In this document: positions 7,239 through 48,632 of the stretch, piece after piece
Position numbering within the stretch: the stretch's first letter is position 1
How the letters are laid out: each line of letters starts with the position of its first letter
Source: a virus
Taxonomy: Duplodnaviria; Caudoviricetes
Virus record (IMG/VR): IMGVR_UViG_3300009124_000016
Span: 1-54,699 of that record
Strand: one strand, 5' to 3'
Length of the DNA stretch: 54,699 bases
Program-made: the position numbers and the translations under genes
The notes under the pieces: model-generated
What the model was told of the DNA's origin: nothing
Seen by the model: only the letters and a program-made list of their open reading frames with translations
Databases searched by the model: none

Positions 7239-10200
7239 TTAGATGTCGATCAACCACCAACCTTGTTGTGCAGAAGGAACATTAGATGCACTTCCATCAC
7301 TATTTAGTGGACCTGCATAGACTAATCCAAATGCAGCATGTGGTGTGGTGACAATTAGTTCGCCACCCAAGTGTGTAGTTCCCGTAACAGTAGTAGAAGA
7401 AATATTAGATACATCACCCTGTACTGACTGACCAGTTGCGGCACGAATAATAAGTTTAAGATCATACTTAAGAGTACCACCAAGGTCAACAAATCTAATC
7501 ATATCACCACTCTTTGGATCTTGTGGCAATCTTACATACAAATTACCAGTTGCATTGATGAAGTAATTGATATTTGATTGTACTTCATCACCCAATCCAG
7601 AGGAGAATGCATAGTAATCCCAACGTCTTTGTCCAGCAGGACCGAAGTATCTATCAACTTCACCAATCTTGATTGTGCCATTGTTAACAACGGCAAAGTT
7701 AACGTCTGAGGGGTTATTTTGTACAACAAAGTCTCCACCACGAACTTCAAGATCGCCAGCAAAGTGGTTAGTTCCAGTACCATTAGCAGCGAATTCGCCC
7801 GAAATAGTTAGATCACCAGTGTTATTAACGAATGCCAGGCTGGTTACCCAGTTAAAAGCAGAAGATGTACCAGTATTTTTCTGAATATATAGATCACCAT
7901 CTCTAATGCTAACATTGCCAGTAGCACCATTCATTCTAATTCTTGCATAATCAGAAGTGGTAGCATTTGCATCTTTACCACCAAGGAGTAGTCCTCCTTG
8001 ACCGAAGATCGCACCATTCTCACTCTTAACATAGAATGTTACATTATCAACACCTGCCTGACCATTGTTGACGACAAGTTCCTTACCAGCAGCAGTATCA
8101 CCATGGAGTGTGATAGTGTCATAAACATCAGCAGTACCTCTAATATAAGTATTACCAGTAGTAGATTCTACTTCAAATGCTAGAACTGGTGCTGTAGTTC
8201 CACCATCATTAACGCTTAGAGTTTGAATAGAAGTTAGAGAAGTAACACTGCCATCAACACGTACAAATTCACCACCATTCAATCTTAGATAATCATTTGG
8301 ATTAATAACTCCACCAAACTCTGCAGTCTGAAGTTGAGTGTCTCCTGCTGTCATAGCAACAGTTAGGAAACTCGCATCTTCGTTCTTAATAAGTTTGATG
8401 AGAGGTAGATTGTCTTGGTGAGATCTAGCGGTAGATCCATCAGCACCTCTCTCAACCTCAACACGAATACCAGCAAGATCTGTGGTATCTGTAAGATTGA
8501 TTAGAGAAACAACTCTTACGATTTCTTTGTCGTTGGCAATAGTTTCATCAAGTAAGATATAATCACCAATGCTAATTGTATTAGTAGCAATAGCACTATC
8601 AAATCTCAAGATTGTATCAGTAGCACTCATTGGAGCGTTACCGCCAGTATCAAGAGTTCTGCCAATTGCTACTGCTTGATACAAATCAACGTTGAAGTTT
8701 GCTGCATCACCAATTGCTTGAGCAGCAGCAGTAGTTCCAAATACACCTCTGGTAACGTCAAATCCACCAGAATTTAGACCACCACGGAGTAGAACATCAC
8801 CATCAAAGTCTGCTCTTGCGTTAACTTCAAGGGCGTTTCTTACTCGTGTAGTACCACCTCTAGATCCCATTGTAAGGGCAGAAGCAGTCATTGCGAAGTC
8901 AACAGTTGCAGGACCGCCACTAGCAGCAAGTAGTTCAAATGTGTTGTTCTGCGAGAACAATTTGCCGACGCCACCAGAAATACCAGATCCAACCTCAACG
9001 TCACCATCTAGTTGAACACCTCTGGTCTTAACTCTTGTCATAGAGCTACTTGCAGCAAATGCACCACCAATGGTGATATCACAACGATAAGAAGCATCGC
9101 TGTTAGCAACACTAGCAATATCTAAGGTTGCATTCTGACTATTTCTATGGAGACGGAAGATTGATGTTTCCGCTGCATCTCCAATAGTAATAGTTTGCTC
9201 ATCGTTAAAGTTACCGATGTTGATTGTTTGAGATCCATTGTTAGCGGTTCCATTAGCAATCTGTAGATCGGTTGCAGATTGTGCGAATGTTACTGTAGTT
9301 GGAGTGTTAAATAGACTTAGTGATGTGCTAGTGGTGCTTAGATCACCAACAAACAGGGCGAGAGAACCATTGATTGTAGTATCACCTTGTAGTAAGGTCT
9401 TACCAACAACATAGAGTTCTGCATCTGCAGCATCAAATGCTGTTTGGTTAGAGTTAATTGATACTCTACCAAGATTTCCAGTTCCACCCGATCTTGGTGT
9501 AGTAGCAACTCTTAGAACAGATAGGTTATCAAGATCGCTCTCGTCTCCACCAACATTTAGAGCATTATCAAGTTTGCTCTCGGTTTTGAGTTGTACACCA
9601 GGTGCGACTGTAATAGCAGTAGACTTACCAGAAATGTATGTATTACCCTCAACATCAAGAGTAGCAACAGGTTGTGTCTCTGTCTGTACAAATCCTGTCT
9701 GATAACCATCATCAGTTGCTCTTGCGAGAGTGTTAACACCCAATCTGTAAGCACCCCAAGTCTCAGTATTTGTTCTGAGAGTTTCAGCACCAACAATACC
9801 GAGTTCTTTCCACTTCGATTGAGAAACTTCTAGTGTACCACCAGAAGCAACCCAAGAATAAGTAGATCCGCTAGCAGGAGCAACAGTAGGTCTTACTCTA
9901 AAGCTATTTTGTGATCCAAGGTTTGAAGCAGATTCTACAGTCCAGTTACCATTTAGATTAGTAAAGGAAGTAAATCCACTAATTCTAACAATCTGACCAG
10001 CAGTTGTAATACCAATACTTGCATTAGTAATACCAACCGAAAGATTAAATGTAACGTAAGTTCCATCACTAGTTACTGTGTTGATATCAGCAGTAGCAGC
10101 AGTGGAATAGTAGTTAGCAAAGATCCAACCAATAGACCCAGAAAGACCAACTTCTTTACCCTTGAATAGAATATCACCAGCAGCAGGTTCTTGAGTAGAA

Positions 10201-13200
10201 CCGTAGGTTACTCTTTGAGTGCCACTGAACAAAGTACCTTGGTCTGGTGTGGTATTTGTGGGACCAAGTGTAGTTGTATAATGTGTTCTGATAGAATAAT
10301 CTTGACCCTCGTTACCAAGAATTTGGCGAGGATTTAGTTTGTAAATTGCTGCAGCAATCTGGTTTTTGTTTAGACTGATGCTATCAGTATTTGCTTCACT
10401 GATTGATTGATCTTCAACAACACTACTAGTGTCAACAATACTTGGAATGGAAAGGGCAGGACCCTCACCAACCGACATGGTGATAGTAACAGGATTGTTG
10501 AATTGTGCGTCACCTTCGACTGTAATTCTATCATTGAAAGTTACAGGAGTATCGAAGGTTGTAACGAGACCGCCGAGATCATCATCACTATCGTCTTCAC
10601 TATCCTGAAGAACTGCTCTTTCAAGGAACGTCTCTTCTCCTGTAATAGCGTTAACCTTACGGTTACCGATATAAAGGTCACCATTGGAGTTTAGACCAGT
10701 GTAGAAGACGATACCACCGTTTTCACGCTTAGACTGTGCATAGAAGTCTTGAATGTCTTCCAGGACAACTTCCTGACGGAGTGGGAAACCAGTTGAGTAG
10801 TTACCAGGACCGAAACCAAGATATTCAAACGTGTGGTTACCAGATCTAGCAATCGATGGACGACGTAGTTCGACATATAGTCTGCCGTCTGTTGGGAAGT
10901 CACTATCACCGTTGATAGGAATATATCTGTCTTCAGATCCAGAAGTAGCATTACCATTCTGTGCCTGAATGATGTTAGATCCACCACTTGGGTTTAGTGT
11001 AGGCGATGATAATGTGTCAGCAGAAACAAAACTGAATGATGTCAATGCTGGTTGAGAAATTAGATCCTCAACAAGTTCTTTAGTTTCACTGTTCTTAGCA
11101 TCATTAATGGTAACCAAACCATGGATATAGTTGTTAGCAGCAGAATATGTAGCAGGAACATCATTGTAGTTCTCATTAATCTGCTTAAACCATACTGGAT
11201 CGTTCTTATAGTTAAGAGGATACAGTTGAGAAATTGGTTGAGAGAACTTGAAGTTTCTGAAGTTGTTACCAACACCAGCACCTTGTGGGAATGGAGAAAT
11301 GTTACCACGTAAGCAAGTTAGATAGTAGATACCATCTTGTTGTCCAGCAATCCTTTGCTGGATAGTGTCGATATCAAAGATGTAGAAAGTATCTTCGATT
11401 GCACCAACATCATATACTTCCTCAATAGTGTATTGATTGCTCTGGTCGTCAGTGATAACATCGCCAGGAACAACAGTGTATACGTTTGCACCTTCAATTC
11501 TGTAAAGATAATCTTTTCTATCGGACTTATCTTTACCAGTAGGATCACCAACACTATTTGGTTTTGCTTGTAGATCAGCAAATACAGATCCTTGAGTAAA
11601 TCTTGTCTGTACTAGAGCATTATACTTAGGATCCTTAGTGGTATTCTTGAGGACCAAATAATGCTTGGTTCCTTGCTGGAAGTATCCTTGGATATATCCA
11701 GAACCTGCAGCATCACCATTCCACTCAACAGCATTAGCAGAAGTTGCAGTGGAGTTGCTGACTACGAATGATCCACCTTGAGGAGCATTGATCTCAACAA
11801 CAGTGAAGATCTCGTTCTTTAGTGCATCAACTGTGATTGTATGGTCAAATGCAGTGATCTCTAGGCGATTGTTTACAGTTCTTGCAGACTGAATGGTGAA
11901 AGCAATTCTACTTTGAGTTCTGTCACTAGCAACAATCTTAGGTTCATTATATGGATCATAGGTTGGATTAGTGATACCAAGTGCAGAAAGATCAGATCTA
12001 GAGAAACCAATTCTCTCACCTGCCTGTGCAGGGTTATCAAATCTAGCGACATCTGGAGCACCACCAACAGGATTAAGAACAAATCTTTGTGGGACTAGTC
12101 TTCTCTTATCATCAGTTCTGACCTTAAGGACGAAACCATTGAGAGGATTACGAACAGTTTCAAGATACTTAGGAATGACATACTTGAGACGATATACTCT
12201 ATCACCTTCAGTTCTATCATCCTTGACACGATCGATCCAAGTATCAAGTGTTCTGATCTTACCAGATCCAGAACCATATGCAACTGGATCGTGGAAGCGA
12301 GTAAGAATAGAATCTGCACGGAACTGGGGAGTTGCAGATGTAGATTCGTTCTTGACCTGTAGATACCAGAGACCAGAAGTATTGGTGGAAGTGCTAAACT
12401 CTGCGTCAAATCTTAGAGGACTTCTTCTCTTGTCTGCAAATACATAGAAGTCTTGTCCACTAGAAGAAACAAAGTTAAGGGCATTTACACCAGCAATAGC
12501 GTCTGCGTGTGTAGTGTGTACACTAAATCTCTTAGGAGATACATATCTCGCATAGAAATAAGTTTGAGTATCAATCGCACCTGTTGCTGTTGATGGCAGA
12601 CCAGAACCAATAATGTCGGTAGCAACACGGAAGAATACTTTCTGTGGTGTTACATTTGCATTTGGTAGGTCAAAAATGTGAGCAACATCAGTTTCGATCT
12701 CACCTGCACCACCTAAATTACAGGTGTAACGATGGAGATCATAGATATCATCGAGAATATATTGCTGCATCTCGATTTCAACATCAGGATCTAGATCATC
12801 AGTTTCGGGAGAGTAGATGTAAATACCAGCAGCAGCATTTTCTTTCGTTGCTGCAAGCATTAGTTTGGTTTGATCCGAACCATCAAACACACCAGGATAG
12901 CTAGCACCTACAGAATAATCTTCGGGAACTGTTGTTCTACCAGGAGCAATAACGTAATACTTAGTATTAGGATCAAATCCTTCAGGAAGTCTGATAAGTC
13001 TCTTATCGGGATTTGTACCTGCTCTTGCTCTAGGAACAAGTCTGACAGGTGTTCCAGTCTCAAAGTTATGTGGATTAGATACACCACCACCAGTATTAAC
13101 GGTAAAGATAGTAGCACGCTTGACAAGATTTTCTGTGTCAAGAACTGGTTCTACTCTTGTTACATTAGTAATAACTGGGGTAGTCTTAGTAATACCAGAT

Positions 13201-16200
13201 AATGTTCCTGGCGTAGATGAAGTACCAACACCTTGAGTGACGATTGAAACTAAGTTAGTGATTACCGTCGAAACAGTTGTATCAGTTGGATCAACAACAA
13301 CGTTATTATCAATAAACTGAGATCTAGATGATCCAGTAATCGTAATAGACTGATTACGCATCGCTTGGATCATCATGTCTCGTGCTTCTGTGTAAGCATA
13401 GACAACCTCATCTTGCTGACCTGCTAGAAGAGTTGGATCACTAACATACAGTTCTGCTATATCATATACTTTATTATTGCTACCATATTCAACATTAAAC
13501 GTAATTGCGTTGATAGTATCAATAATATCATTAATATACTCTTGATTACCACCAGGAACAGAGAAACCAGGGAAGTTGGTTAGCATTCTGTCAACTGCTA
13601 CTTCAGCAATCAACTCTTTGTTCCCATCAATTAGGTTAGAAGCATCAGTCTGCTTTTGACCTAGACGTGTTAAACCATTGTTGAGGATAACAAAAATGTC
13701 ATCAAAATATCCAGAGATCGTAGTTGCAACGTTAGCACATTCAGGATATCCAGCGTTAGAAGTAAGAATAGTAGGATCTTTTTCGGGATCTAAAGTTGTA
13801 GAGAATGCACCGTCAACAATTTCAAAGTACAAATAAGCGTTGCCTACTCTATCACCAATAGCAGGTTGAACTGATCCAGTAGTTAGTTTGCTACCAGCAA
13901 CACCAAGTTCAATTCTACTGCCATCTAGAATTCTCTTAATGAATGTATTTACAGGAATTGCAGTTGTGATTGGTGTTGGAGTTCCGATTAACTGACTATC
14001 AGCATTAAAATCAGCAGATGCATATTCTTTAACAGACATGCCAACCAAAAGACCAGCAGTAGATCCAACATCAACAATTTCGCTGGTGTCAGTAACTGTG
14101 CAGTTCTGGATCAAGAAGTCCCAGTTACGCATTGCTGCGATACACATGTTCTTGACATAATCATATGTCTCGATACTTTCATCAAGTTCATTCTGAATGT
14201 ATGTTAATTGACCACCAATGAAGTATCCTTCTGCTGCTTGAATAGTATTAATATTTCCGCCTAGCTTGAGGTCAGAAACAACAGCATCTACAAAGTATCC
14301 GATGTCTCTCTCACACTTACCAATGACAATATTTGGATTGGTTAGTAGATATGGATACTTAGTAGTAATATAAGTATATGCTTCGTTCTGAATGAACTCT
14401 TTGTTCAAAGCAATCAGGTTAGCAGCATCTTGTGCTAAGTTGTCAACCTGAATGCCAGAAGGATTTAGAGTTTCAATGGATGCAGTGTAACGTAGGAAAC
14501 CAGTTGGTTCTAGAGTTGAATAATATGTACCATTGTCTAGTTTGACATACAGTTTATCATCACTTCTAGCACCGACACGATAACCACTGATAGATGCTGC
14601 TGGACGATCTGCAGGATCTGTTAGATCATCAGAACCGAGATACAATCTGGTATTGTTAGTTGTATCGTTTGATGCTTGAATATCAAGGGTGTAGTATTGG
14701 ATTTTCTCTTCTACACTTTCTCTAATAGTCTTTGGAGGAATGATATCAGAAATGTATCCACCCTTATCCTGGTTAAATGCAAATCCTTTGAAACCTACTG
14801 CGTGTAGAGAAGTATTACCGAAGTTGGAGTTCGAGTTGGTGATGGACATATCACCACCACTTTCCATTAGGAAGTGATCGAAGAAACCAACAGCGAAGAC
14901 CGAGACGCACTGAATGAAGGAATCGTCAGAAGCACGAATGTGGAAGTTTCTCCAGTCATCCTTCCAGTATGCATCACCTTTTGCGTGATAAGGAACTGTT
15001 GCAAATGCATCAGTTAGTGATGCTTGGTTCCAGGTGTTTGTAAATTTATCGTAGCGGATGAATGCGCGGTCATCTTTCTGGAGCGAAACACCAGTGTACT
15101 GTGCAACAACCATCGACTTAAATCCAGTCGCCTTGCTACCATCTGCCCACATACCACACTGACCCCAGGTGGAACGAATAGAGCAGTTAAAGACGTATGG
15201 AGATGCAGATTCGACACTATCAATTTCTGCCTGTCCAACAGCATTGGTGTTCAATCCATTTGCTGTTGTGTAAGTTGTTCCGTCAATCAGACCGAGGGCA
15301 GAAGTTGTTGCTTCAATTTGATATTGGAATACTTTTGGATTATCAGCATCAATAGAGTAGATCTTAAATGTACCATTGACCTGATCATCAAGACCAGAGT
15401 TCAAGATAGCAACATACTGATCTACGAAGTAACCATGATCAATCTTTGTAGTAACAGTTGCTGTGATCTTACCAGTGCTAGCACTAAATGATGCACCACC
15501 AGATCCAAGAAGAGGATTAGATAGAGTTACAACATCACCAGTAATATCAACAATCGTGGTATTATTTGGAATAGTGATACCAGTGCTAGAAGTTGTTACA
15601 GTAGCACCAACTTCAAGACCAGATGTGTCATTGACACTGGTAATACCAGCATTAGTGTTTGTTACAACACCAGTAAATGCAACAGTATCTTCTACCTTGA
15701 TACTTTCAATTCTTCTGGTATCAGATAGAGGACCAACAATTCTATTTTCTTGTACTAATGCCTCTAGTTCACCATTGTCGATATCTGGTTGGAACCTAGC
15801 AAAAGATTTACCAACTTTATCATAATATGATTGCAGATCAGCATTGTCTGCATATGTCATGATGCAGATCTTATGGTGCGAATACTCAGGAATTGCTTTC
15901 GCAGAATCGTTTCCTTTAATGTAATAAACCTTACCAACACCTGCTGTGCTGTCATATAAAGGAGAGTTTGCAGATAGATCGCCGTCTTTGATCGTGAACT
16001 GCCAGAGATAGCAACCACCAGTTAGATTGAAGATGGAGGTTCTTTCGACTGAAGGAGAAGTGGGGTCAGGAACGTATAGAGGACGAATGATGGTACGACG
16101 AAGGTCGTAACCAATAAGAGAGCAACCTCTAGGAACAATAGCGCCACCAGAAGCAGCATTGAATTTGTAGAGAACATTGTCTGGATTGGAGAGATCTAGA

Positions 16201-17081
16201 ATGCTGTTATCATCCCACTCTTCAAGTGCTCTGTTGAAATTGAAGATTGGCAATTCTTCATCGCTCTCAGGAGCAGTTTTGGTGACACCAGATAGACTGC
16301 CAGGGTTGCCAGTTGTTCCAACAGCAGTCGTGATGAGTGCAATTAGTGATGTGATGTTAGAAGCAACATCTTGACAAGTATTGGACTGACCGTAAGGAAT
16401 GTTAGGACCAGAAGTGCCAGCAATAGCAGGACCGAGACTAATCGTGAGATTTTTTTGTTGTGTTAGTCCGTGAGTACCTTGAACAGCAACATCTTCATTT
16501 CTCATCACCTGAATGGCGATGTCTCTTGCTTCGTTAAATGCTGCTACAGTTTGATCTTCTTCACCCTGTACGTGTGCTCCATTGACATACAGGTTTGCAG
16601 CATCATAAACCTTATCGTTGCCACCAAACTTCAGGTTGTATGCAAGTTCTACCAGGGTATCTTTAACATCATCAGTGCAATCAGAAGTGTTGCCAGTAGG
16701 CGACACCCAAGAGGGGAATGCAATCTGCATTCTAGCAACTGCTTCCTCTGCAATGAAGTCTTTGTTGGTTAGAATTTGATTAGCAGCATCAAAATATCTA
16801 TTACCTTGACCATCATAATTGACAATGCCAGGTCTATTGTCAATAAAGTGGTTGCCAGGCATCAGCATGATGGTGAACTGGTCAAACCTATCGTTATTCT
16901 TACCAGGGAGATAAGAGTAACGTGACACCTCAATAAACGCTCTTTGAATAGTCTTGAATGGACGTAGAGGACTATTTCCCCTATTGTCTAGTTCATCAGT
17001 AGCGTTAAAATCATCTGGTGATACATATAAGTATTTTCCAGTTTTACTTGAGTATAGATTATCAAGTCTTGTAAGAGCCAT
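7239..17081 (-). CDS. Giant virion structural protein (baseplate/fibre-associated)
   Basis: 3280 aa. N-terminus LYVSPDD..D...RGNS..RPFKTIQRA is typical of cyanomyovirus structural proteins. Three 'DAANLI..NK.FI' helical repeats; C-terminal 'RLPQDPKSGDMIRFVD..GWW' baseplate-type domain. TATAAATA late promoter upstream. Confidence 0.8.
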   Translation of the reverse strand: MALTRLDNLYSSKTGKYLYVSPDDFNATDELDNRGNSPLRPFKTIQRAFIEVSRYSYLPGKNNDRFDQFTIMLMPGNHFIDNRPGIVNYDGQGNRYFDAANQILTNKDFIAEEAVARMQIAFPSWVSPTGNTSDCTDDVKDTLVELAYNLKFGGNDKVYDAANLYVNGAHVQGEEDQTVAAFNEARDIAIQVMRNEDVAVQGTHGLTQQKNLTISLGPAIAGTSGPNIPYGQSNTCQDVASNITSLIALITTAVGTTGNPGSLSGVTKTAPESDEELPIFNFNRALEEWDDNSILDLSNPDNVLYKFNAASGGAIVPRGCSLIGYDLRRTIIRPLYVPDPTSPSVERTSIFNLTGGCYLWQFTIKDGDLSANSPLYDSTAGVGKVYYIKGNDSAKAIPEYSHHKICIMTYADNADLQSYYDKVGKSFARFQPDIDNGELEALVQENRIVGPLSDTRRIESIKVEDTVAFTGVVTNTNAGITSVNDTSGLEVGATVTTSSTGITIPNNTTIVDITGDVVTLSNPLLGSGGASFSASTGKITATVTTKIDHGYFVDQYVAILNSGLDDQVNGTFKIYSIDADNPKVFQYQIEATTSALGLIDGTTYTTANGLNTNAVGQAEIDSVESASPYVFNCSIRSTWGQCGMWADGSKATGFKSMVVAQYTGVSLQKDDRAFIRYDKFTNTWNQASLTDAFATVPYHAKGDAYWKDDWRNFHIRASDDSFIQCVSVFAVGFFDHFLMESGGDMSITNSNSNFGNTSLHAVGFKGFAFNQDKGGYISDIIPPKTIRESVEEKIQYYTLDIQASNDTTNNTRLYLGSDDLTDPADRPAASISGYRVGARSDDKLYVKLDNGTYYSTLEPTGFLRYTASIETLNPSGIQVDNLAQDAANLIALNKEFIQNEAYTYITTKYPYLLTNPNIVIGKCERDIGYFVDAVVSDLKLGGNINTIQAAEGYFIGGQLTYIQNELDESIETYDYVKNMCIAAMRNWDFLIQNCTVTDTSEIVDVGSTAGLLVGMSVKEYASADFNADSQLIGTPTPITTAIPVNTFIKRILDGSRIELGVAGSKLTTGSVQPAIGDRVGNAYLYFEIVDGAFSTTLDPEKDPTILTSNAGYPECANVATTISGYFDDIFVILNNGLTRLGQKQTDASNLIDGNKELIAEVAVDRMLTNFPGFSVPGGNQEYINDIIDTINAITFNVEYGSNNKVYDIAELYVSDPTLLAGQQDEVVYAYTEARDMMIQAMRNQSITITGSSRSQFIDNNVVVDPTDTTVSTVITNLVSIVTQGVGTSSTPGTLSGITKTTPVITNVTRVEPVLDTENLVKRATIFTVNTGGGVSNPHNFETGTPVRLVPRARAGTNPDKRLIRLPEGFDPNTKYYVIAPGRTTVPEDYSVGASYPGVFDGSDQTKLMLAATKENAAAGIYIYSPETDDLDPDVEIEMQQYILDDIYDLHRYTCNLGGAGEIETDVAHIFDLPNANVTPQKVFFRVATDIIGSGLPSTATGAIDTQTYFYARYVSPKRFSVHTTHADAIAGVNALNFVSSSGQDFYVFADKRRSPLRFDAEFSTSTNTSGLWYLQVKNESTSATPQFRADSILTRFHDPVAYGSGSGKIRTLDTWIDRVKDDRTEGDRVYRLKYVIPKYLETVRNPLNGFVLKVRTDDKRRLVPQRFVLNPVGGAPDVARFDNPAQAGERIGFSRSDLSALGITNPTYDPYNEPKIVASDRTQSRIAFTIQSARTVNNRLEITAFDHTITVDALKNEIFTVVEINAPQGGSFVVSNSTATSANAVEWNGDAAGSGYIQGYFQQGTKHYLVLKNTTKDPKYNALVQTRFTQGSVFADLQAKPNSVGDPTGKDKSDRKDYLYRIEGANVYTVVPGDVITDDQSNQYTIEEVYDVGAIEDTFYIFDIDTIQQRIAGQQDGIYYLTCLRGNISPFPQGAGVGNNFRNFKFSQPISQLYPLNYKNDPVWFKQINENYNDVPATYSAANNYIHGLVTINDAKNSETKELVEDLISQPALTSFSFVSADTLSSPTLNPSGGSNIIQAQNGNATSGSEDRYIPINGDSDFPTDGRLYVELRRPSIARSGNHTFEYLGFGPGNYSTGFPLRQEVVLEDIQDFYAQSKRENGGIVFYTGLNSNGDLYIGNRKVNAITGEETFLERAVLQDSEDDSDDDLGGLVTTFDTPVTFNDRITVEGDAQFNNPVTITMSVGEGPALSIPSIVDTSSVVEDQSISEANTDSISLNKNQIAAAIYKLNPRQILGNEGQDYSIRTHYTTTLGPTNTTPDQGTLFSGTQRVTYGSTQEPAAGDILFKGKEVGLSGSIGWIFANYYSTAATADINTVTSDGTYVTFNLSVGITNASIGITTAGQIVRISGFTSFTNLNGNWTVESASNLGSQNSFRVRPTVAPASGSTYSWVASGGTLEVSQSKWKELGIVGAETLRTNTETWGAYRLGVNTLARATDDGYQTGFVQTETQPVATLDVEGNTYISGKSTAITVAPGVQLKTESKLDNALNVGGDESDLDNLSVLRVATTPRSGGTGNLGRVSINSNQTAFDAADAELYVVGKTLLQGDTTINGSLALFVGDLSTTSTSLSLFNTPTTVTFAQSATDLQIANGTANNGSQTINIGNFNDEQTITIGDAAETSIFRLHRNSQNATLDIASVANSDASYRCDITIGGAFAASSSMTRVKTRGVQLDGDVEVGSGISGGVGKLFSQNNTFELLAASGGPATVDFAMTASALTMGSRGGTTRVRNALEVNARADFDGDVLLRGGLNSGGFDVTRGVFGTTAAAQAIGDAANFNVDLYQAVAIGRTLDTGGNAPMSATDTILRFDSAIATNTISIGDYILLDETIANDKEIVRVVSLINLTDTTDLAGIRVEVERGADGSTARSHQDNLPLIKLIKNEDASFLTVAMTAGDTQLQTAEFGGVINPNDYLRLNGGEFVRVDGSVTSLTSIQTLSVNDGGTTAPVLAFEVESTTGNTYIRGTADVYDTITLHGDTAAGKELVVNNGQAGVDNVTFYVKSENGAIFGQGGLLLGGKDANATTSDYARIRMNGATGNVSIRDGDLYIQKNTGTSSAFNWVTSLAFVNNTGDLTISGEFAANGTGTNHFAGDLEVRGGDFVVQNNPSDVNFAVVNNGTIKIGEVDRYFGPAGQRRWDYYAFSSGLGDEVQSNINYFINATGNLYVRLPQDPKSGDMIRFVDLGGTLKYDLKLIIRAATGQSVQGDVSNISSTTVTGTTHLGGELIVTTPHAAFGLVYAGPLNSDGSASNVPSAQQGWWLIDI

Positions 17082-17144: not shown

Positions 17145-17217
17145 CTCCCCCTCCTGGGATCGAACCAGGGACATTTTGATTAACAGTCAAACGCTACTAC
17201 CGCTGAGCTAAGGAGGA
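17145..17217 (-). tRNA. trnN: tRNA-Asn(GTT)
   Basis: Cloverleaf TCCTCCT..AGGGGGA-G, anticodon arm TTTGA-CTGTTAA-TCAAA, T-loop GGTTCGATCC. No encoded CCA. Confidence 0.95.
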
Positions 17218-17222
17218 TTGAG

Positions 17223-17293
17223 AGCCCTATGACGGAATTGAACCATCCTCTGCAGTTTACAAAACTGCTGCATCACCACAATGCTTATAGGGC
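17223..17293 (-). tRNA. trnT: tRNA-Thr(TGT)
   Basis: Acceptor GCCCTAT/ATAGGGC, anticodon arm GCAGT-TTTGTAA-ACTGC, T-loop GGTTCAATTCC. Confidence 0.9.
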
Positions 17294-18145: not shown

Positions 18146-18220
18146 TACCCGTGATCGGACTCGAACCGATACTGTCGAAATTTTAAGTTTCGTGTCTACT
18201 GCCAATTGGACTACACGGGC
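18146..18220 (-). tRNA. trnL: tRNA-Leu(TAA), short variable loop
   Basis: Acceptor GCCCGTG/CACGGGT-A, anticodon arm CGAAA-CTTAAAA-TTTCG, T-arm ATCGG-TTCGAGT-CCGAT. Confidence 0.9.
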
Positions 18221-39810: not shown

Positions 39811-40009
39811 TTTTTTTCTCCTTATTAAATCCGAAGGGCGCAAGTTTTTCATCGACCCTATTCTTCATAGCAACACCAGCAAGTGCTTCCATTACTTTAA
39901 GAACTTGTTCTGGTTTGGTATCTTCAGGCAACTTCGATGAAACAAATTCATACTTGGGGAAGAACTCTTCCCCCGCCTTTTCATATTCTTCTAGTGTAAT
40001 TGTTTTCAT
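39788..40009 (-). CDS. Hypothetical protein
   Basis: ATGA coupling to thyX. KVME.L..V.MK.R...PFGF motif. Confidence 0.65.
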   Translation of the reverse strand: MKTITLEEYEKAGEEFFPKYEFVSSKLPEDTKPEQVLKVMEALAGVAMKNRVDEKLAPFGFNKEKKNADVSSN

Positions 40010-40656
40010 GACCATTCAAGTGCCTCGGCACAAATAGGGAACTGTTCCACAAAGATATCACGACAAGCATGTGCAATATCCATGTGTTCTTTTTGAGTGC
40101 CGTGAGCACTCCGTAGATCTATATAGTGAATCCATGACCGAACTGATCCTGTCATGTAGATTTTTGTGGGCGTCGCGAGGGGGAGTACAAAACGCGAACA
40201 CTCCTTTGCGATTCCCATTTCAAGCATGTGCTTGTAGATGTCCATAGCACTCTGGAAGTGTCGCTTGATAGTAATCTCAAGTTCTTGTCGAACAAAAGGA
40301 TCAACATCATCAATAGAGTTCTGACGGTTCTTTGTATCCTGACGACGAAGATCAAACAAAGGGATCTCATCTGCCAACATAGAACTGTCAGCATACCGCT
40401 GGGAAAACTCTTGAAATGTGAACGAACGGTGACGCAAAATTTGAGCTGCGATACCTCTGGTAGTGTTGATCTCAAGCGTCATGTGCGCCTGCTCAAAGAC
40501 GCTCCAGTGGTTGTGTTTGATGCAATACTTAAGGAGACCAGCAACCTTAGGATTATCTTGATTAGAGGGGTTGCTTACCCTCGCTACGTACCCCATCATC
40601 TTCTCCGCTTCTGGGGTTACTGTAATCAGATTCACTAATTGTTGATTGATGCTCAT
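40006..40656 (-). CDS. thyX: FAD-dependent thymidylate synthase ThyX
   Basis: ARVSNP, HWSVFE, QILRHRSF.FQEFSQRY, TQKEH. Confidence 0.97.
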   Translation of the reverse strand: MSINQQLVNLITVTPEAEKMMGYVARVSNPSNQDNPKVAGLLKYCIKHNHWSVFEQAHMTLEINTTRGIAAQILRHRSFTFQEFSQRYADSSMLADEIPLFDLRRQDTKNRQNSIDDVDPFVRQELEITIKRHFQSAMDIYKHMLEMGIAKECSRFVLPLATPTKIYMTGSVRSWIHYIDLRSAHGTQKEHMDIAHACRDIFVEQFPICAEALEWS

Positions 40657-40816
40657 ATCCGAAACCATAGAGTGCTTTTTCGTTGTTTGTTTGAATGCGA
40701 CGCAGCTTCATCAATTCACGATACTGCTGCTGTAGTTTAGCATACTCTTCGTTGCTATACAAATGTCCTTTTGCAAGGGCTTTCTTGATGTTCTTTGTGA
40801 GTGTTTTAAGTCCCAT
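40562..40816 (-). CDS. Hypothetical protein
   Basis: Basic helical small ORF (IKKAL...LYS.EE...GFG). Its 3' end overlaps thyX by 95 nt. Confidence 0.55.
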   Translation of the reverse strand: MGLKTLTKNIKKALAKGHLYSNEEYAKLQQQYRELMKLRRIQTNNEKALYGFGYEHQSTISESDYSNPRSGEDDGVRSEGKQPL

Positions 40817-40818
40817 AA

Positions 40819-40986
40819 TCAGTCCGTGTAACCGTCATCGTCATCTTGTGAATCGTATCTGGCATATGCAGCAGACACATCTTTACCTTCTGTATATGAT
40901 CGTGGATCTGAATAGATTTCAGATTTCAAACTAGCAACTAGTAGTTCTAGATTTCTCACAATCATCTTTAATCGTGTTTTTTCCAT
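40819..40986 (-). CDS. Conserved small cyanophage protein (55 aa, not in the ORF track)
   Basis: MEKTRLKMIVRNLELLVASLKSEIYSDPRSY...DDDDGYTD*. Confidence 0.7.
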   Translation of the reverse strand: MEKTRLKMIVRNLELLVASLKSEIYSDPRSYTEGKDVSAAYARYDSQDDDDGYTD

Positions 40987-41007: not shown

Positions 41008-41047
41008 AATTATAGCATAAAAAAAGAGGGGTTACAAGCCCCTCTTT
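41008..41047 (-). terminator. Terminator hairpin overlapping a sigma70 promoter
   Basis: AAGAGGGG-CTTGTAA-CCCCTCTT plus U-tract. The same bases read TTGTAA-N17-TATAAT. Confidence 0.7.
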
Positions 41048-41101: not shown

Positions 41102-41269
41102 TCACTTGCTGTAAGTGCGACCACGATAGCAGAAGGTGCCATGTGGTTCGGTCATCTCAACACAACATGTATCATACGCAACGCCACGATATGCAGCGTG
41201 AGTAATCTGAGCGTCATGAAGTGCAGCAGCTTTCTTGATCTGCTTTTTGATGAGGTTTAAAGTGTTCAT
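41102..41269 (-). CDS. DUF4278-like small protein
   Basis: Two YRG motifs (AYRGVAY, CYRGRTY), AGGAG SD, downstream of glutamine-riboswitch-like RNA. Confidence 0.75.
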   Translation of the reverse strand: MNTLNLIKKQIKKAAALHDAQITHAAYRGVAYDTCCVEMTEPHGTFCYRGRTYSK

Positions 41270-41302
41270 TGTAGGTCTCCTAAAGGATGGGTTTTTTAGT
41301 CC

Positions 41303-41540
41303 CCGTTCCTTCAGTCGTTTGCGTCCCATGGATAACACTCAGGGGTAGATTCCTTTACGGTCTCTATCAACTCTACCTTAAAAGCATCTGAGATGTTCTC
41401 GTTTGCTCTCATCCTCAGGATAATTCCCTCGGTTTGTTGGCAGGTGAGTGTTGTATAGAATAATAGTTCTAGCATGAGATGAACGGCTCCGTTCCGCGAC
41501 TTACTTGCGTCCACGGGATGTGAAGTCCCTTGGATGAACG
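41303..41540 (-). ncRNA. Tandem glutamine riboswitch-like element (glnA/Downstream-peptide class)
   Basis: Unit 1: CGTTCATCC..GGACGCAAGTAAGTCGCGGAACG (41540-41490). Unit 2: CCGTTCATCTCATG...CATGGGACGCAAACGACTGAAGGAACGG (41486-41303). AGTCG/CGACT are complementary. Confidence 0.75.
41311..41475 (-). CDS. 54-aa hypothetical protein nested in the riboswitch P2 loop
   Basis: MLELLFYTTLTCQQTEGIILRMRANENISDAFKVELIETVKESTPECYPWDAND*. GGAG 11 nt upstream. Confidence 0.65.
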   Translation of the reverse strand: MLELLFYTTLTCQQTEGIILRMRANENISDAFKVELIETVKESTPECYPWDAND

Positions 41541-41547
41541 TATGGTA

Positions 41548-41576
41548 ATTATACCATATTATATATGCTCTGGCAA
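41548..41576 (-). promoter_or_regulatory. Sigma70-type promoter for the riboswitch/DUF4278 unit
   Basis: TTGCCA-N17-TATAAT, with the -10 ending 7 nt before aptamer 1. Confidence 0.75.
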
Positions 41577-47379: not shown

Positions 47380-48462
47380 TCAACCAACAGCAGGTGCGGT
47401 GAGAGCAACAGGGGTGCTTTCAGCAGCAGCAAGGTCAAGAGGGAAATTATGAGCATTTCGTTCATGCATTACCTCCATCCCGAGACCAGCACGGTTGAGA
47501 ACATCTGCCCAGGTGTTCAGGACTTTGCCCTGACTATCCATGATGGACTGGTTGAAGTTGAAACCGTTGAGGTTGAATGCCATGGTGCTAACACCGAGAG
47601 CAGTGAACCAGATACCAACGACAGGCCATGCTGCCAGGAAGAAGTGAAGTGAACGAGAGTTGTTGAACGATGCATACTGGAAGATCAGACGACCGAAGTA
47701 TCCATGAGCAGCAACAATGTTATAGGTCTCTTCTTCTTGACCGAACTTGTAACCATAGTTCTGGGACTCTTGCTCAGTCGTCTCACGGACGAGTGAAGAT
47801 GTAACCAAAGAACCGTGCATTGCACTGAACAGAGAACCACCAAACACGCCAGCAACGCCAAGCATGTGGAAGGGGTGCATCAGGATGTTGTGCTCTGCTT
47901 GGAAGACAAGCATGTAGTTGAACGTACCAGAGATGCCAAGAGGCATAGCGTCAGAGAAAGAACCTTGACCGAAAGGATAGACCAGGAAGACTGCGGATGC
48001 TGCTGCAACAGGTGCAGAGTATGCAACACAGATCCATGGACGCATACCTAGACGGTAAGAAAGTTCCCACTCACGTCCCATATATGCATAGATGCCGATA
48101 AGGAAGTGGAAGACTACTAGTTGGAAAGGACCACCATTGTAAAGCCATTCATCCAAAGATGCTGCTTCCCAAATGGGGTAGAAGTGAAGACCAATAGCGT
48201 TGGAGGAGGGTACAACAGCACCAGAGATGATGTTGTTGCCATACATGAGCGAACCAGCGACGGGTTCACGGATGCCGTCAATGTCCACAGGAGGAGCAGC
48301 GACGAAAGCAACGATGAAGCAGATGGTTGCCGCCAACAGTGTTGGGATCATCAGGACACCGAACCAACCGACATACAGACGATTGTTGGTGGAGGTTACC
48401 CAGTTACAGAATTGTTCCCAGGTAGATGCGCCTTGCTGACGCGAGAGAGTAGATTGAGCCAT
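47380..48462 (-). CDS. psbA: Photosystem II D1 protein
   Basis: Full-length D1 (NRLYVGWFG...[14 protein letters not shown]), uninterrupted. Confidence 0.99.
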
Positions 48463-48475
48463 TGTTTTTGTACGA

Positions 48476-48585
48476 AAAGTAAGACCATCAGGGAAATGGT
48501 GGAGTTACTATTTCCTCACCACCCTCAGGTGAGGATATGAGAGACTGTTTTTTATACACGCTGTTTAGTCTCGGTGAGGCGTGTT
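48476..48585 (-). ncRNA. PhotoRC-II-like structured psbA leader RNA
   Basis: Stems CACGC/GCGTG, GAGACT/AGTCTC, CCTCACC/GGTGAGG and ACCAT/ATGGT directly 5' of psbA, matching the known location of the motif. Confidence 0.7.
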
Positions 48586-48632
48586 TACAAAAGATTAGAG
48601 AACTTTACATTCCTTAACCCGTTGATGTATTT

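Follow-up and report, generated by a model that had tools for sequence, protein, structure and literature searches.

How compact does a riboswitch aptamer have to be, and can its helices be closed across a gene that is itself translated? Riboswitch aptamers are usually treated as compact elements of untranslated leaders, and the locus described here, which lies on the minus strand at positions 41303 to 41540 of a stretch of viral DNA (Duplodnaviria; Caudoviricetes; IMG/VR virus record IMGVR_UViG_3300009124_000016), has the appearance of a natural split aptamer that is closed across one or two conserved genes. The whole stretch of 54,699 bases was analysed and is termed the window; its CheckV completeness estimate is 28, and it is most closely related to T4-like Synechococcus cyanophages of the Kyanoviridae, among them S-CAM4, ACG-2014j/i/e, S-CAM3, S-RIM44 and Syn1. 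A first-pass annotation of the window had described two glutamine-riboswitch-like units in tandem, with an open reading frame (ORF) nested in the P2 loop of the second unit. On the sequence evidence, we conclude that the locus represents a genuine variant of the glutamine-I riboswitch, widespread and so far unannotated. Its nested genes stand confirmed, and its topology becomes nested instead of tandem.

The reading that we favour, with a probability of about 0.6, is that a single early transcript (approximately 41542 to 41015, minus strand) would carry in its 5′ 240 nucleotides (nt) two glutamine aptamers, one nested in the other, assembled around a translated gene. The anatomy of the locus, its conservation, the covariation of its helices (P2a, P2b, P3, inner P1 and a sequestor hairpin) and the coding status of the nested genes were computed here. 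The features are collected in table 1; the nested gene is termed ORF-B and the gene downstream of the aptamer ORF-C.

Anatomy and topology of the aptamer

The sequence elements named in the first-pass annotation are present. The 5′ half of unit 2, CCGTTCA-TCTCATG, lies at 41486-41473 and the 3′ half, CATGGGA-CGCAAACGACTGAAGGAACGG (RNA: CAUGGGA-CGCAAACGACUGAAGGAACGG), at 41330-41303, both on the minus strand and separated by 142 nt; the intervening ORF of 54 amino acids (aa) starts with an ATG in the P2 5′ strand and ends with a TGA within GACTGAAGG, and both the AGTCG/CGACT complementarity and the GAACG-GAGC-CGTTC hairpin are found. The predicted P2 helix of unit 2 does have seven pairs in the window, one of them U.G, but across relatives the first four to five pairs alone are conserved, while pairs 6 and 7 are unpaired in about half of 123 sequences. 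Chance can be excluded for the paired motif, since GACGCAA-N9-GGAACGG occurs exactly twice in the window, both times at this locus, when 0 occurrences are expected from 100 shuffles.

The element is not confined to the window. The 43-nt junction between the units occurs in 415 of 50,697 GenBank phage records, all of them cyanophages and at one place in each, with at least 80% of the 43-nt query covered in 378 of the 415, and an exact-pattern scan found the same layout in at least 120 IMG/VR contigs. In a bacterial genome collection, 119 of the 120 matches, among those listed, are chance matches in unrelated bacteria; the remaining listed match is a contig of 193,981 bp, a typical myovirus size, in a Synechococcus metagenome-assembled genome (MAG). 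Within the family of this MAG the pattern was found in 1 of the 401 genomes searched, namely the MAG itself, and not in the rest of those searched.

For comparison, 133 loci were parsed, comprising 12 from GenBank, 120 from IMG/VR (among the matches listed) and the window. The 3′ half lies at most 420 nt away in 126 of the 133; the other seven are five loci cut by contig ends and two that were left unresolved. The covariation alignment contains 123 sequences, with 500 shuffles as the null, and all covariation counts given below are counts of sequences and not of independent events, the true number of which is smaller. Six near-identical loci (L357, L363, L365, L385, L392 and L394) have the look of a broken copy: unit 1 (as CGUUUA) and the junction through GGAG are retained, and other sequence takes the place of the second CGUUC, the nested gene and the 3′ half.

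How are the two units connected? The alignments support a reading in which a canonical three-way junction of the glutamine-I (glnA) type is made by the outer strands (41540-41497 and 41317-41304), and in which P3 of this junction has been opened by an insertion that forms a second, circularly permuted aptamer-like junction, so that one aptamer would be nested within the other and not placed beside it. Four observations favour this reading, namely the pairing kept in all P3 variants, a compensatory swap in the inner hairpin, the Infernal alignment of a gene-less relative through its outer strands and the covariation of P2; the two tandem aptamers of the first-pass annotation are not supported.

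The inner hairpin, GAACG-GAGC-CGUUC, had been taken for an alternative structure that would break both P1 stems; it is rather a conserved helix with a compensatory change of its own, and its invariance in the 123 sequences owes something to how the search was designed. At the first G of GAACG in unit 1, 57 loci have another base; six of them are decayed remnants and 51 carry G>C. In all 51, CGUUC of unit 2 has become CGUUG, so that the inner hairpin reads CAACG...CGUUG, while CGUUC of unit 1 is unchanged (51/51), as is GAACG of unit 2 wherever the 3′ half is present (44/44). Both nested helices stay perfect under this swap, whereas the tandem fold acquires C.C and G.G mismatches in both P1 helices. 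The variable pair is the junction-proximal fifth pair of the helix, and the structural account of these riboswitches (PMC6698751) counts the corresponding pair among the helix's two non-conserved ones. At the fourth pair of inner P1, a variant scan found no variants.

Searches with Infernal and the Rfam models were run on the window and, in place of a loop-deleted sequence, on natural gene-less relatives; the cut-offs are 35 bits for RF01739 (glutamine-I, glnA) and 33 bits for RF01704 (glutamine-II, Downstream-peptide). In the window, unit 1 scores 18.4 bits with RF01739, below the cut-off, and unit 2 is unreported, while unit 2 alone in locus L289 reaches 30.1 bits, also below the cut-off; a gathering-level Rfam scan of the window and 19 related loci returned no glutamine riboswitch match. 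The compact relative L288, which has two short P2 hairpins and no gene, scores 46.4 bits (E 1.8e-7); it is aligned through its outer strands, with the inner 41 nt placed as an insertion within P3. Because L288 reaches this score, we attribute the failure of the window to the size of its insertion.

Each part of the glutamine-I consensus can be traced in the outer strands of the window. CGUUC and GAACG pair as P1 with the conserved flanking A and G, P2 follows as a hairpin, and J2/3 contains GCAAGTA, which is invariant (123/123 sequences). The loop-E motif consists of AGUA and GAAG, which are joined only through the long-range P3; P3 itself is present, though opened by the insertion and not a hairpin, and the leader position is that of glutamine-I, with the DUF4278-like ORF-C downstream. 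In 33 phage singlets the order is CGUUCA-P2-CGCAAGUA-(AG..CU hairpin)-GAAGGAACGG, with P3 as a hairpin. The window has AAGUA-AGUCG in unit 1 only and CGACU-GAAGG in unit 2 only, so a complete loop E arises from the nested fold alone; two complete serial aptamers, each with its own P1, are not found, as each unit is without half of loop E. The pseudoknot of glutamine-II, CGUUC/GGAACG in the 3′ hairpin loop, is likewise not found: RF01704 gives 17.7 bits in the window (unit 1), 29.2 bits in L289 and 28.1 bits in L288, with several non-pairs in the 3′ hairpin.

The AGTCG/CGACT link proposed by the first-pass annotation corresponds to P3, and it covaries: 99.5% of P3 cells are paired in the 123-sequence alignment, three pairs change on both sides, and 0 of 500 shuffles reach the observed score. 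Among IMG/VR variants with the 3′ half, the pair is kept in 55 of 55, as A-U, U-A or U.G, at two positions. Position 5 (G to non-G) varies in 35 loci, 34 of them with the 3′ half, and is kept in all 34 (33 A-U, one of which has an extra U.G elsewhere in P3, and 1 U.G); position 2 (G to non-G) varies in 25 loci, 21 with the 3′ half, and is kept in all 21 (18 A-U and 3 U-A). Position 4 (C to non-C) gave 0 variant loci in the IMG/VR variant scan. Long-range covariation is also found in P2b, where none of the 500 shuffles reaches the observed score and the fourth pair is CG in 97 sequences, UA in 17, UG in 6, AU in 2 and unpaired in 1. Nearest-neighbour folding energies are -70.6 kcal/mol for the nested and -67.5 kcal/mol for the tandem fold. 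A local 3′ aptamer with CCGUAAAGG (41360-41352) as its 5′ strand was also considered and was rejected, that stretch not being conserved as an RNA motif.

Read as CGUUC-A-P2b-CGCAAA-P3-C-GAACG, the inner junction has its parts in canonical order; GAG(C) caps its P1, its P3 is open, and it keeps the conserved CGUUC/GAACG/GGACGCA set of the outer junction. In solved structures, glutamine is contacted by C1:G59, C58 and G22, in the P1 helix and J2/3, while P3 juts out sideways, and glutamine-II binds glutamine in the same way without loop E (PMC6698751). As the conserved set that these structures place at the ligand site is present, the inner junction is a plausible second glutamine site.

Table 1. 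Features of the locus, in window coordinates; all lie on the minus strand.
Feature	Position	Strand	Remarks
Promoter-like site, sigma-70 type	41548-41576	-	TTGCCA, 17 nt, TG-TATAAT; 11/12 matches, extended -10
Outer P1, 5′ strand CGUUC, then junction A 41535	41536-41540	-	As in the RF01739 alignment of L288
Outer P2 (P2a), short hairpin here	41510-41534	-	Directly after CGUUCA; closes onto GGA-CG
J2/3 CGCAAGUA, AGUA side of loop E	41502-41509	-	Fits RF01739 consensus CGGAAGUA; AGUA 41505-41502
P3, 5′ strand AGUCG	41497-41501	-	Pairs with 41313-41317
Inner P1 hairpin	41481-41495	-	GAACG 41494-41490, loop GAGC 41489-41486, CGUUC 41485-41481
Inner P2 (P2b), 5′ strand UCUCAUG	41473-41479	-	Holds the AUG of ORF-B, 41475-41473
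ORF-B	41311-41475	-	54 aa and stop; phrog_504; T4-GC 430 in GenBank notes
Inner P2 (P2b), 3′ strand CAUGGGA	41324-41330	-	Encodes part of the ORF-B C-terminus
Inner J2/3 CGCAAA	41318-41323	-	Without GUA of loop E
P3, 3′ strand CGACU	41313-41317	-	P3 covariation
J3/1 GAAG, GAA side of loop E	41309-41312	-	RF01739 consensus GAAGGAACG; UGA of ORF-B is 41313-41311
Outer P1, 3′ strand GAACG	41304-41308	-	L288 alignment
Sequestor hairpin	41280-41314	-	CUGAAGGA 41314-41307 pairs with UCCUUUAG 41287-41280; in the minimum-energy fold
ORF-C	41102-41269	-	55 aa; phrog_545; DUF4278-like; T4-GC 937
Terminator-like hairpin (intrinsic type) and U run	41023-41047	-	Follows ORF-C; would end a transcript some 525 nt long

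Genes in the P2 loops

A protein-coding ORF inside the P2 loop, with its start and stop codons in elements of the aptamer, was the central claim of the first-pass annotation, and ORF-B is confirmed by conservation of its reading frame, codon entropy and substitution ratios as a real and conserved protein-coding gene. A frame of 49-66 aa is open in all 126 loci with both halves, and in each of the 126 the start codon lies in or directly beside the P2 5′ strand. The motif CGACU[G/A]AAGG contains the stop codon in 117 of the 126, as UGA in 83 loci and as UAA in 34; the stop lies three nt later in three loci with a long P3, is a UAG within the P2 3′ strand in four and lies 18 nt upstream in two. 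Among 123 distinct coding sequences, codon entropy is approximately 1.6 at position 3 and 0.8 at position 2, and two Cys residues are essentially invariant (123/123 and 121/123). The median pairwise ratio of nonsynonymous to synonymous substitution rates (dN/dS) is 0.39 over 2081 pairs, against 0.66-2.2 in shifted frames. This coding signal excludes a non-coding structured spacer in place of ORF-B.

GenBank records label ORF-B as a hypothetical protein, T4-GC 430. Over its full length (residues 1-54) it matches phrog_504 (E 6.8e-29), a family of unknown function; a search for Pfam families gave none, and the ESM Atlas returned hypothetical clusters only. AlphaFold predicts a two-helix hairpin with a predicted local distance difference test score (pLDDT) of 84, and Foldseek found no match for this model in the PDB at E<=0.001. 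Several ORF subfamilies that look unrelated to one another fill the P2b loop.

Coding and RNA structure overlap at both ends of the gene. The loop of inner P1 and its flanking G make up GGAG, the sole Shine-Dalgarno-like sequence for ORF-B. In the last five codons (W-D-A-N/H-D) third-position entropy falls to 0.1-0.4, from about 1.6 in the body of the gene, and the RNA motif of the 3′ half is retained in loci where it is non-coding. Since third positions are frozen in these codons and the same motif is kept where nothing is encoded, a constraint on the RNA overlies the coding constraint.

The loop of outer P2 (P2a) may also hold a gene. In S-CAM3 and Sf-CH1b, the P2 helix of unit 1 closes over a gene of 66 aa in the arrangement CGUUCAUCUUAUG-ORF-CAUAGGACGCAAGUA (phrog_6471). 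A gene of the phrog_6471 family (65-75 aa) occupies P2a in 29 of the 133 loci, while 101 have a short hairpin there, which occurs in many variants with the stem retained. The stop codon of the P2a gene is part of the P2 3′ strand and finds its match in the 5′ strand: the helices UCUUAUG/CAUAAGA, UCUCAUG/CAUGAGA and UCCUAUG/CAUAGGA accommodate UAA, UGA and UAG, respectively, and UCCAAU/AUUGGA is also found. With a gene present (n=29), at least five contiguous pairs form in 17 loci, and in two more by way of a one-base bulge. No BLASTP alignment was found between ORF-A, the gene in outer P2, and ORF-B, while a profile comparison gave a probability of 47% (E 1.9e-4), so paralogy of the two is possible on these profiles. 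In L049 the P2a gene seems to be decayed, with ACG as its start and only 18 codons open, yet the helix persists through a corresponding change in the opposite strand (UCUCACG with UGUGAGA). In unit 1 of L044 and L079, the A after CGUUC has become G and the C of CGCAAGUA has become U (CGUUCG-ACCC...GGGU-UGCAAGUA); this joint change is an isosteric A.C to G.U replacement, as expected if the two bases pair at the base of P2.

A gene-less form, with a short hairpin replacing ORF-B, was found at five IMG/VR loci in a dedicated scan of the whole of IMG/VR, and also in L295. As hairpin and gene forms are seen at both P2a and P2b, the two P2 loops appear to be interchangeable sites. Environmental transcripts include gene-less forms as well: in metatranscriptomes, small shares of the words (0.04-0.07) were found in six runs of five studies, and four runs (three studies) were aligned to the window. 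The contigs cover mostly conserved pieces of relatives, and one of 311 nt spans 41293-41558. At the borders of the nested gene (window 41325-41488, runs X1 and X6), joints skip 141-161 nt at 85% likeness, and one skipping contig has 18 other letters between its two sides, which we read as a short P2 hairpin. These joints come from compact gene-less relatives in the environment and are no evidence of splicing.

Transcript, sequestor and proposed working

The promoter-like site ends 8 nt before CGUUCA, and its motif is conserved in aligned relatives; from its position, transcription would start some 1-3 nt before the aptamer. A sequestor hairpin, which is in competition with the aptamer, joins the aptamer's 3′ strand to the Shine-Dalgarno sequence AGGAG (41281-41277) of ORF-C and takes in the first two bases of the latter; an inner GGG/CCC stem (41304-41302 with 41291-41289) belongs to it. 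The strand CU[G/A]AAG, which comprises the end of P3, the ORF-B stop and loop E, is complementary to YUU[C/U]AG directly before the GAG of this AGGAG, and a perfect 6-nt anti-sequence stands directly before GAG in 111 of 126 loci. The two sides covary: the A that comes from UAA faces U in 34 of 35 loci, while G faces C or U.

ORF-C has two invariant YRG motifs and matches phrog_545, a family of unknown function, over residues 1-55 (E 4.7e-33). Its description as DUF4278-like holds for the family, with 94 of 100 relatives matching PF14105 at E<=0.01; the copy in the window falls short of the DUF4278 cut-off of 25.3, at 18.9 bits. A number of loci (L037, L022, L100, L096, L102, L104, L115 and L288-L292) have an extra conserved element between the aptamer and the DUF4278-like gene. 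It lies downstream of GGAACGG and reads ...ACGGAUC(C/A)...GAGAAGGUUAA... or ...CGGAUCACCC...GGGGUUAAAGGAG..., with the CUUCAGGAG anti-sequence lying farther downstream; the element could be an additional structured module or a second ribosome binding site.

We infer ligand binding, the direction of regulation and a reciprocal switch as follows. Glutamine-I is a translational ON switch ahead of DUF4278 genes, as reported in PMC6212724. At high glutamine, the nested fold would be closed and the start of ORF-B buried, with GGAG in a loop of 3-4 nt and AUG in P2. CUGAAGGAACG would then be held in P3, loop E and P1 and hence be unavailable to the sequestor; the anti-sequence UCCUUUAG would leave the Shine-Dalgarno sequence of ORF-C free, and ORF-C would be on, as in the host gifB switch. 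At low glutamine, the 3′ strand would enter the sequestor hairpin and the ORF-B start would open; ribosomes on ORF-B would melt P2b, P3 and loop E and terminate on the 5′ strand of the sequestor. Since they would both unwind the aptamer and stop on the sequestor strand, translation would oppose sensing and may couple ORF-C to ORF-B. The first-pass proposal that the ligand hides the nested start codon while translation unfolds the aptamer fits the anatomy and is plausible. The fuller version of this scheme is tentative, and we put it at somewhat less than even odds: the sensor would be a pair of nested glutamine sites closing over 150-450 nt of coding RNA, with ribosome traffic and ligand as antagonists, the nested protein or proteins would be made at low and an IF17-like protein at high glutamine, and the phage would read the nitrogen status of its host at the start of infection.

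Several observations weigh against a nested and regulated aptamer. The window itself falls well short of the RF01739 cut-off (18.4 against 35 bits), and the inner junction has no loop E. The conserved part of P2b comprises just four to five pairs that have to close some 150 nt, its fifth pair is unpaired in 15 of 120 sequences (AU in 102 and UA in 3), and 10 of the 29 gene-bearing P2a loci keep only three contiguous pairs. The unconstrained minimum-energy fold (-82.8 kcal/mol) corresponds to neither the nested nor the tandem model, though it contains the inner hairpin. All 51 swapped hairpins may stem from one event, and the P3 variants from few. The anti-sequence is the best of 39 offsets, by which a perfect 6-mer would be met about once in ten cases by chance (an estimate); the fixed position beside GAG is therefore the stronger point. 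Finally, ORF-C would be made in either state if ribosomes terminating on ORF-B opened the sequestor, which would weaken the reciprocal logic.

Three rival explanations were considered. The aptamer could be real and the genes in its P2 loops passive cargo at sites that tolerate insertions, comparable to ORFs in the peripheral loops of group I introns, such that the switch controls the DUF4278-like gene only and ORF-B is translated constitutively or in a first round. The exchange of gene and hairpin at both P2 loops in natural relatives, the unrelated-looking ORF subfamilies in P2b and the six of 126 loci with a stop outside loop E all suit such an arrangement, as do the P3 and P2 loops that are peripheral in the solved glutamine-I fold (PMC6698751). 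Passive cargo would not, however, require a start at the P2 5′ strand in every locus and a stop in the sequestor and loop-E strand in 117, nor the covariation of the G/A variation at the stop codon with the anti-sequence, and the gene-containing form dominates (126 loci against the five gene-less ones and L295); we regard it as rather unlikely. It is less probable still that the halves are relics, ordinary riboswitches split by gene insertion that no longer fold together and are conserved for initiation, translational coupling or RNase sites. Helices of four to five pairs are weak on their own over such distances, P2a pairs poorly in some loci, six decayed remnants are known and the window is under the Rfam cut-off; against this stand compensatory changes over 150-200 nt in P3 (55/55), P2b and P2a, a 3′ half that is unchanged whether it is coding or not, and the frozen third positions of the last five codons, so that we consider decay of this kind very improbable.

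The tandem pairing, with CGUUC and GAACG of each unit paired locally, AGUCG/CGACU as a bridge and the local hairpin as a competing OFF structure, is somewhat more probable than the relics. The P1 strands are identical in most loci and so allow both pairings, and P1 of unit 1 can form during transcription ahead of the second CGUUC. Doublets of glutamine riboswitches are moreover reported to be common, with 157 noted (PMC9481103), and RF01739 does respond to single units, namely to unit 2 of L289 and to unit 1 of the window. Both of these scores are under the cut-off of 35 bits, though, when the nested alignment attains 46.4; the swap in 51 loci breaks both tandem P1 helices and leaves the nested ones perfect, only the nested fold yields a complete loop E, and the tandem fold is 3.1 kcal/mol less stable. 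We therefore think it improbable as the functional structure; it may occur as a transient folding intermediate.

Known systems, meaning and neighbouring features

The nested aptamer shares its outer parts (P1, P2, CG(C/G)AAGUA, P3, the GAAG loop E and GAACG) with glutamine-I (RF01739) as found in the gifB leader of Synechocystis and in cyanophage singlets, and, as described for glutamine-I (PMC6212724, PMC6698751), it sits at the 5′ end of an mRNA for a small DUF4278-type protein; a comparable hairpin competes at the ribosome binding site. It differs in that an insertion of about 184 nt, with a second junction and a gene, opens its P3, in that P2 also holds a gene in some phages and start and stop codons are parts of the aptamer, and in that the window is undetected at the Rfam cut-off. 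Tandem (doublet and triplet) glutamine riboswitches are described as pseudo-cooperative systems whose expression platforms are separate (Sherlock et al. 2022, PMC9481103; Weinberg et al. 2010, PMC2864571). The locus likewise has two CGUUCA / GGACGCA / GGAACG sets per leader, and the rare compact gene-less relatives L288 and L295 would resemble a doublet; its units, in contrast, are nested and not serial, share one P3 and one loop E, are separated by 3-4 nt with no expression platform there, and enclose a gene in one or both cases.

A two-piece glutamine-II RNA assembles upon addition of glutamine (Huang et al. 2019, PMC6698751). There, as here, segments that lie apart make up the ligand helix CGUUC/GGAACG, with glutamine driving the association in the published case; that RNA was made in the laboratory from two short RNAs (PMC6698751), whereas the parts of the locus are natural and belong to one mRNA with an ORF between them. 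The window and its relatives are also unlike glutamine-II in their RF01704 scores (17.7 to 29.2 bits against 33). Cyanophage glutamine riboswitches are themselves known from Rfam hits (PMC9964418, PMC9602691, PMC9004378), and in a full-text literature search we found no account of a gene in the loop of a riboswitch helix or of a nested topology, although an earlier description may exist.

A translated ORF in a terminal loop of a structured RNA is familiar from group I introns with ORFs in peripheral loops and from dual-function RNAs. Folding and translation must be reconciled in these as in the present locus, which is unlike group I introns in being no ribozyme or intron and in having no splicing, and in which the boundaries of the ORF are functional nucleotides of the aptamer.

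Conserved nucleotides of the aptamer also serve as the start codon, the stop codon, C-terminal codons and the partner of the anti-Shine-Dalgarno pairing. The arrangement would provide a physical route to couple metabolite sensing with the translation of more than one gene. Nearly all T4-like cyanophages of Synechococcus carry the element, as a single copy, and covariance-model annotation has missed it. It would link early phage expression to host glutamine and to an IF17-like putative inhibitor of glutamine synthetase, and thereby bears on the steering of ocean nitrogen metabolism by phages. The natural series, in which the gene is absent, stands in inner or in outer P2, or is joined by a second so that both loops are filled, as in S-CAM3, offers ready-made experimental controls.

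Other features of the window were recorded in passing. A second promoter-like site (TTGTAA-17-TG-TATAAT, 10/12 matches; 41009-41037, minus strand) overlaps the terminator-like hairpin and precedes the small ORFs 40819-40986 and 40562-40816. A PhotoRC-II RNA (RF01717) lies at 48500-48596 (minus strand, 65.6 bits), upstream of the ORF at 47380-48462, with a homologue in L102 as well. At 17145-17293 and 18146-18220 (minus strand), next to an ORF of 3280 aa at 7239-17081, lie three tRNA genes (Rfam tRNA, 54-58 bits). A 220-aa ORF at 40006-40668 (minus strand) includes RHRSFTFQEFSQRY, which we take to resemble the ThyX signature; at the equivalent place in the relative S-H9-2, a thymidylate synthase is annotated.

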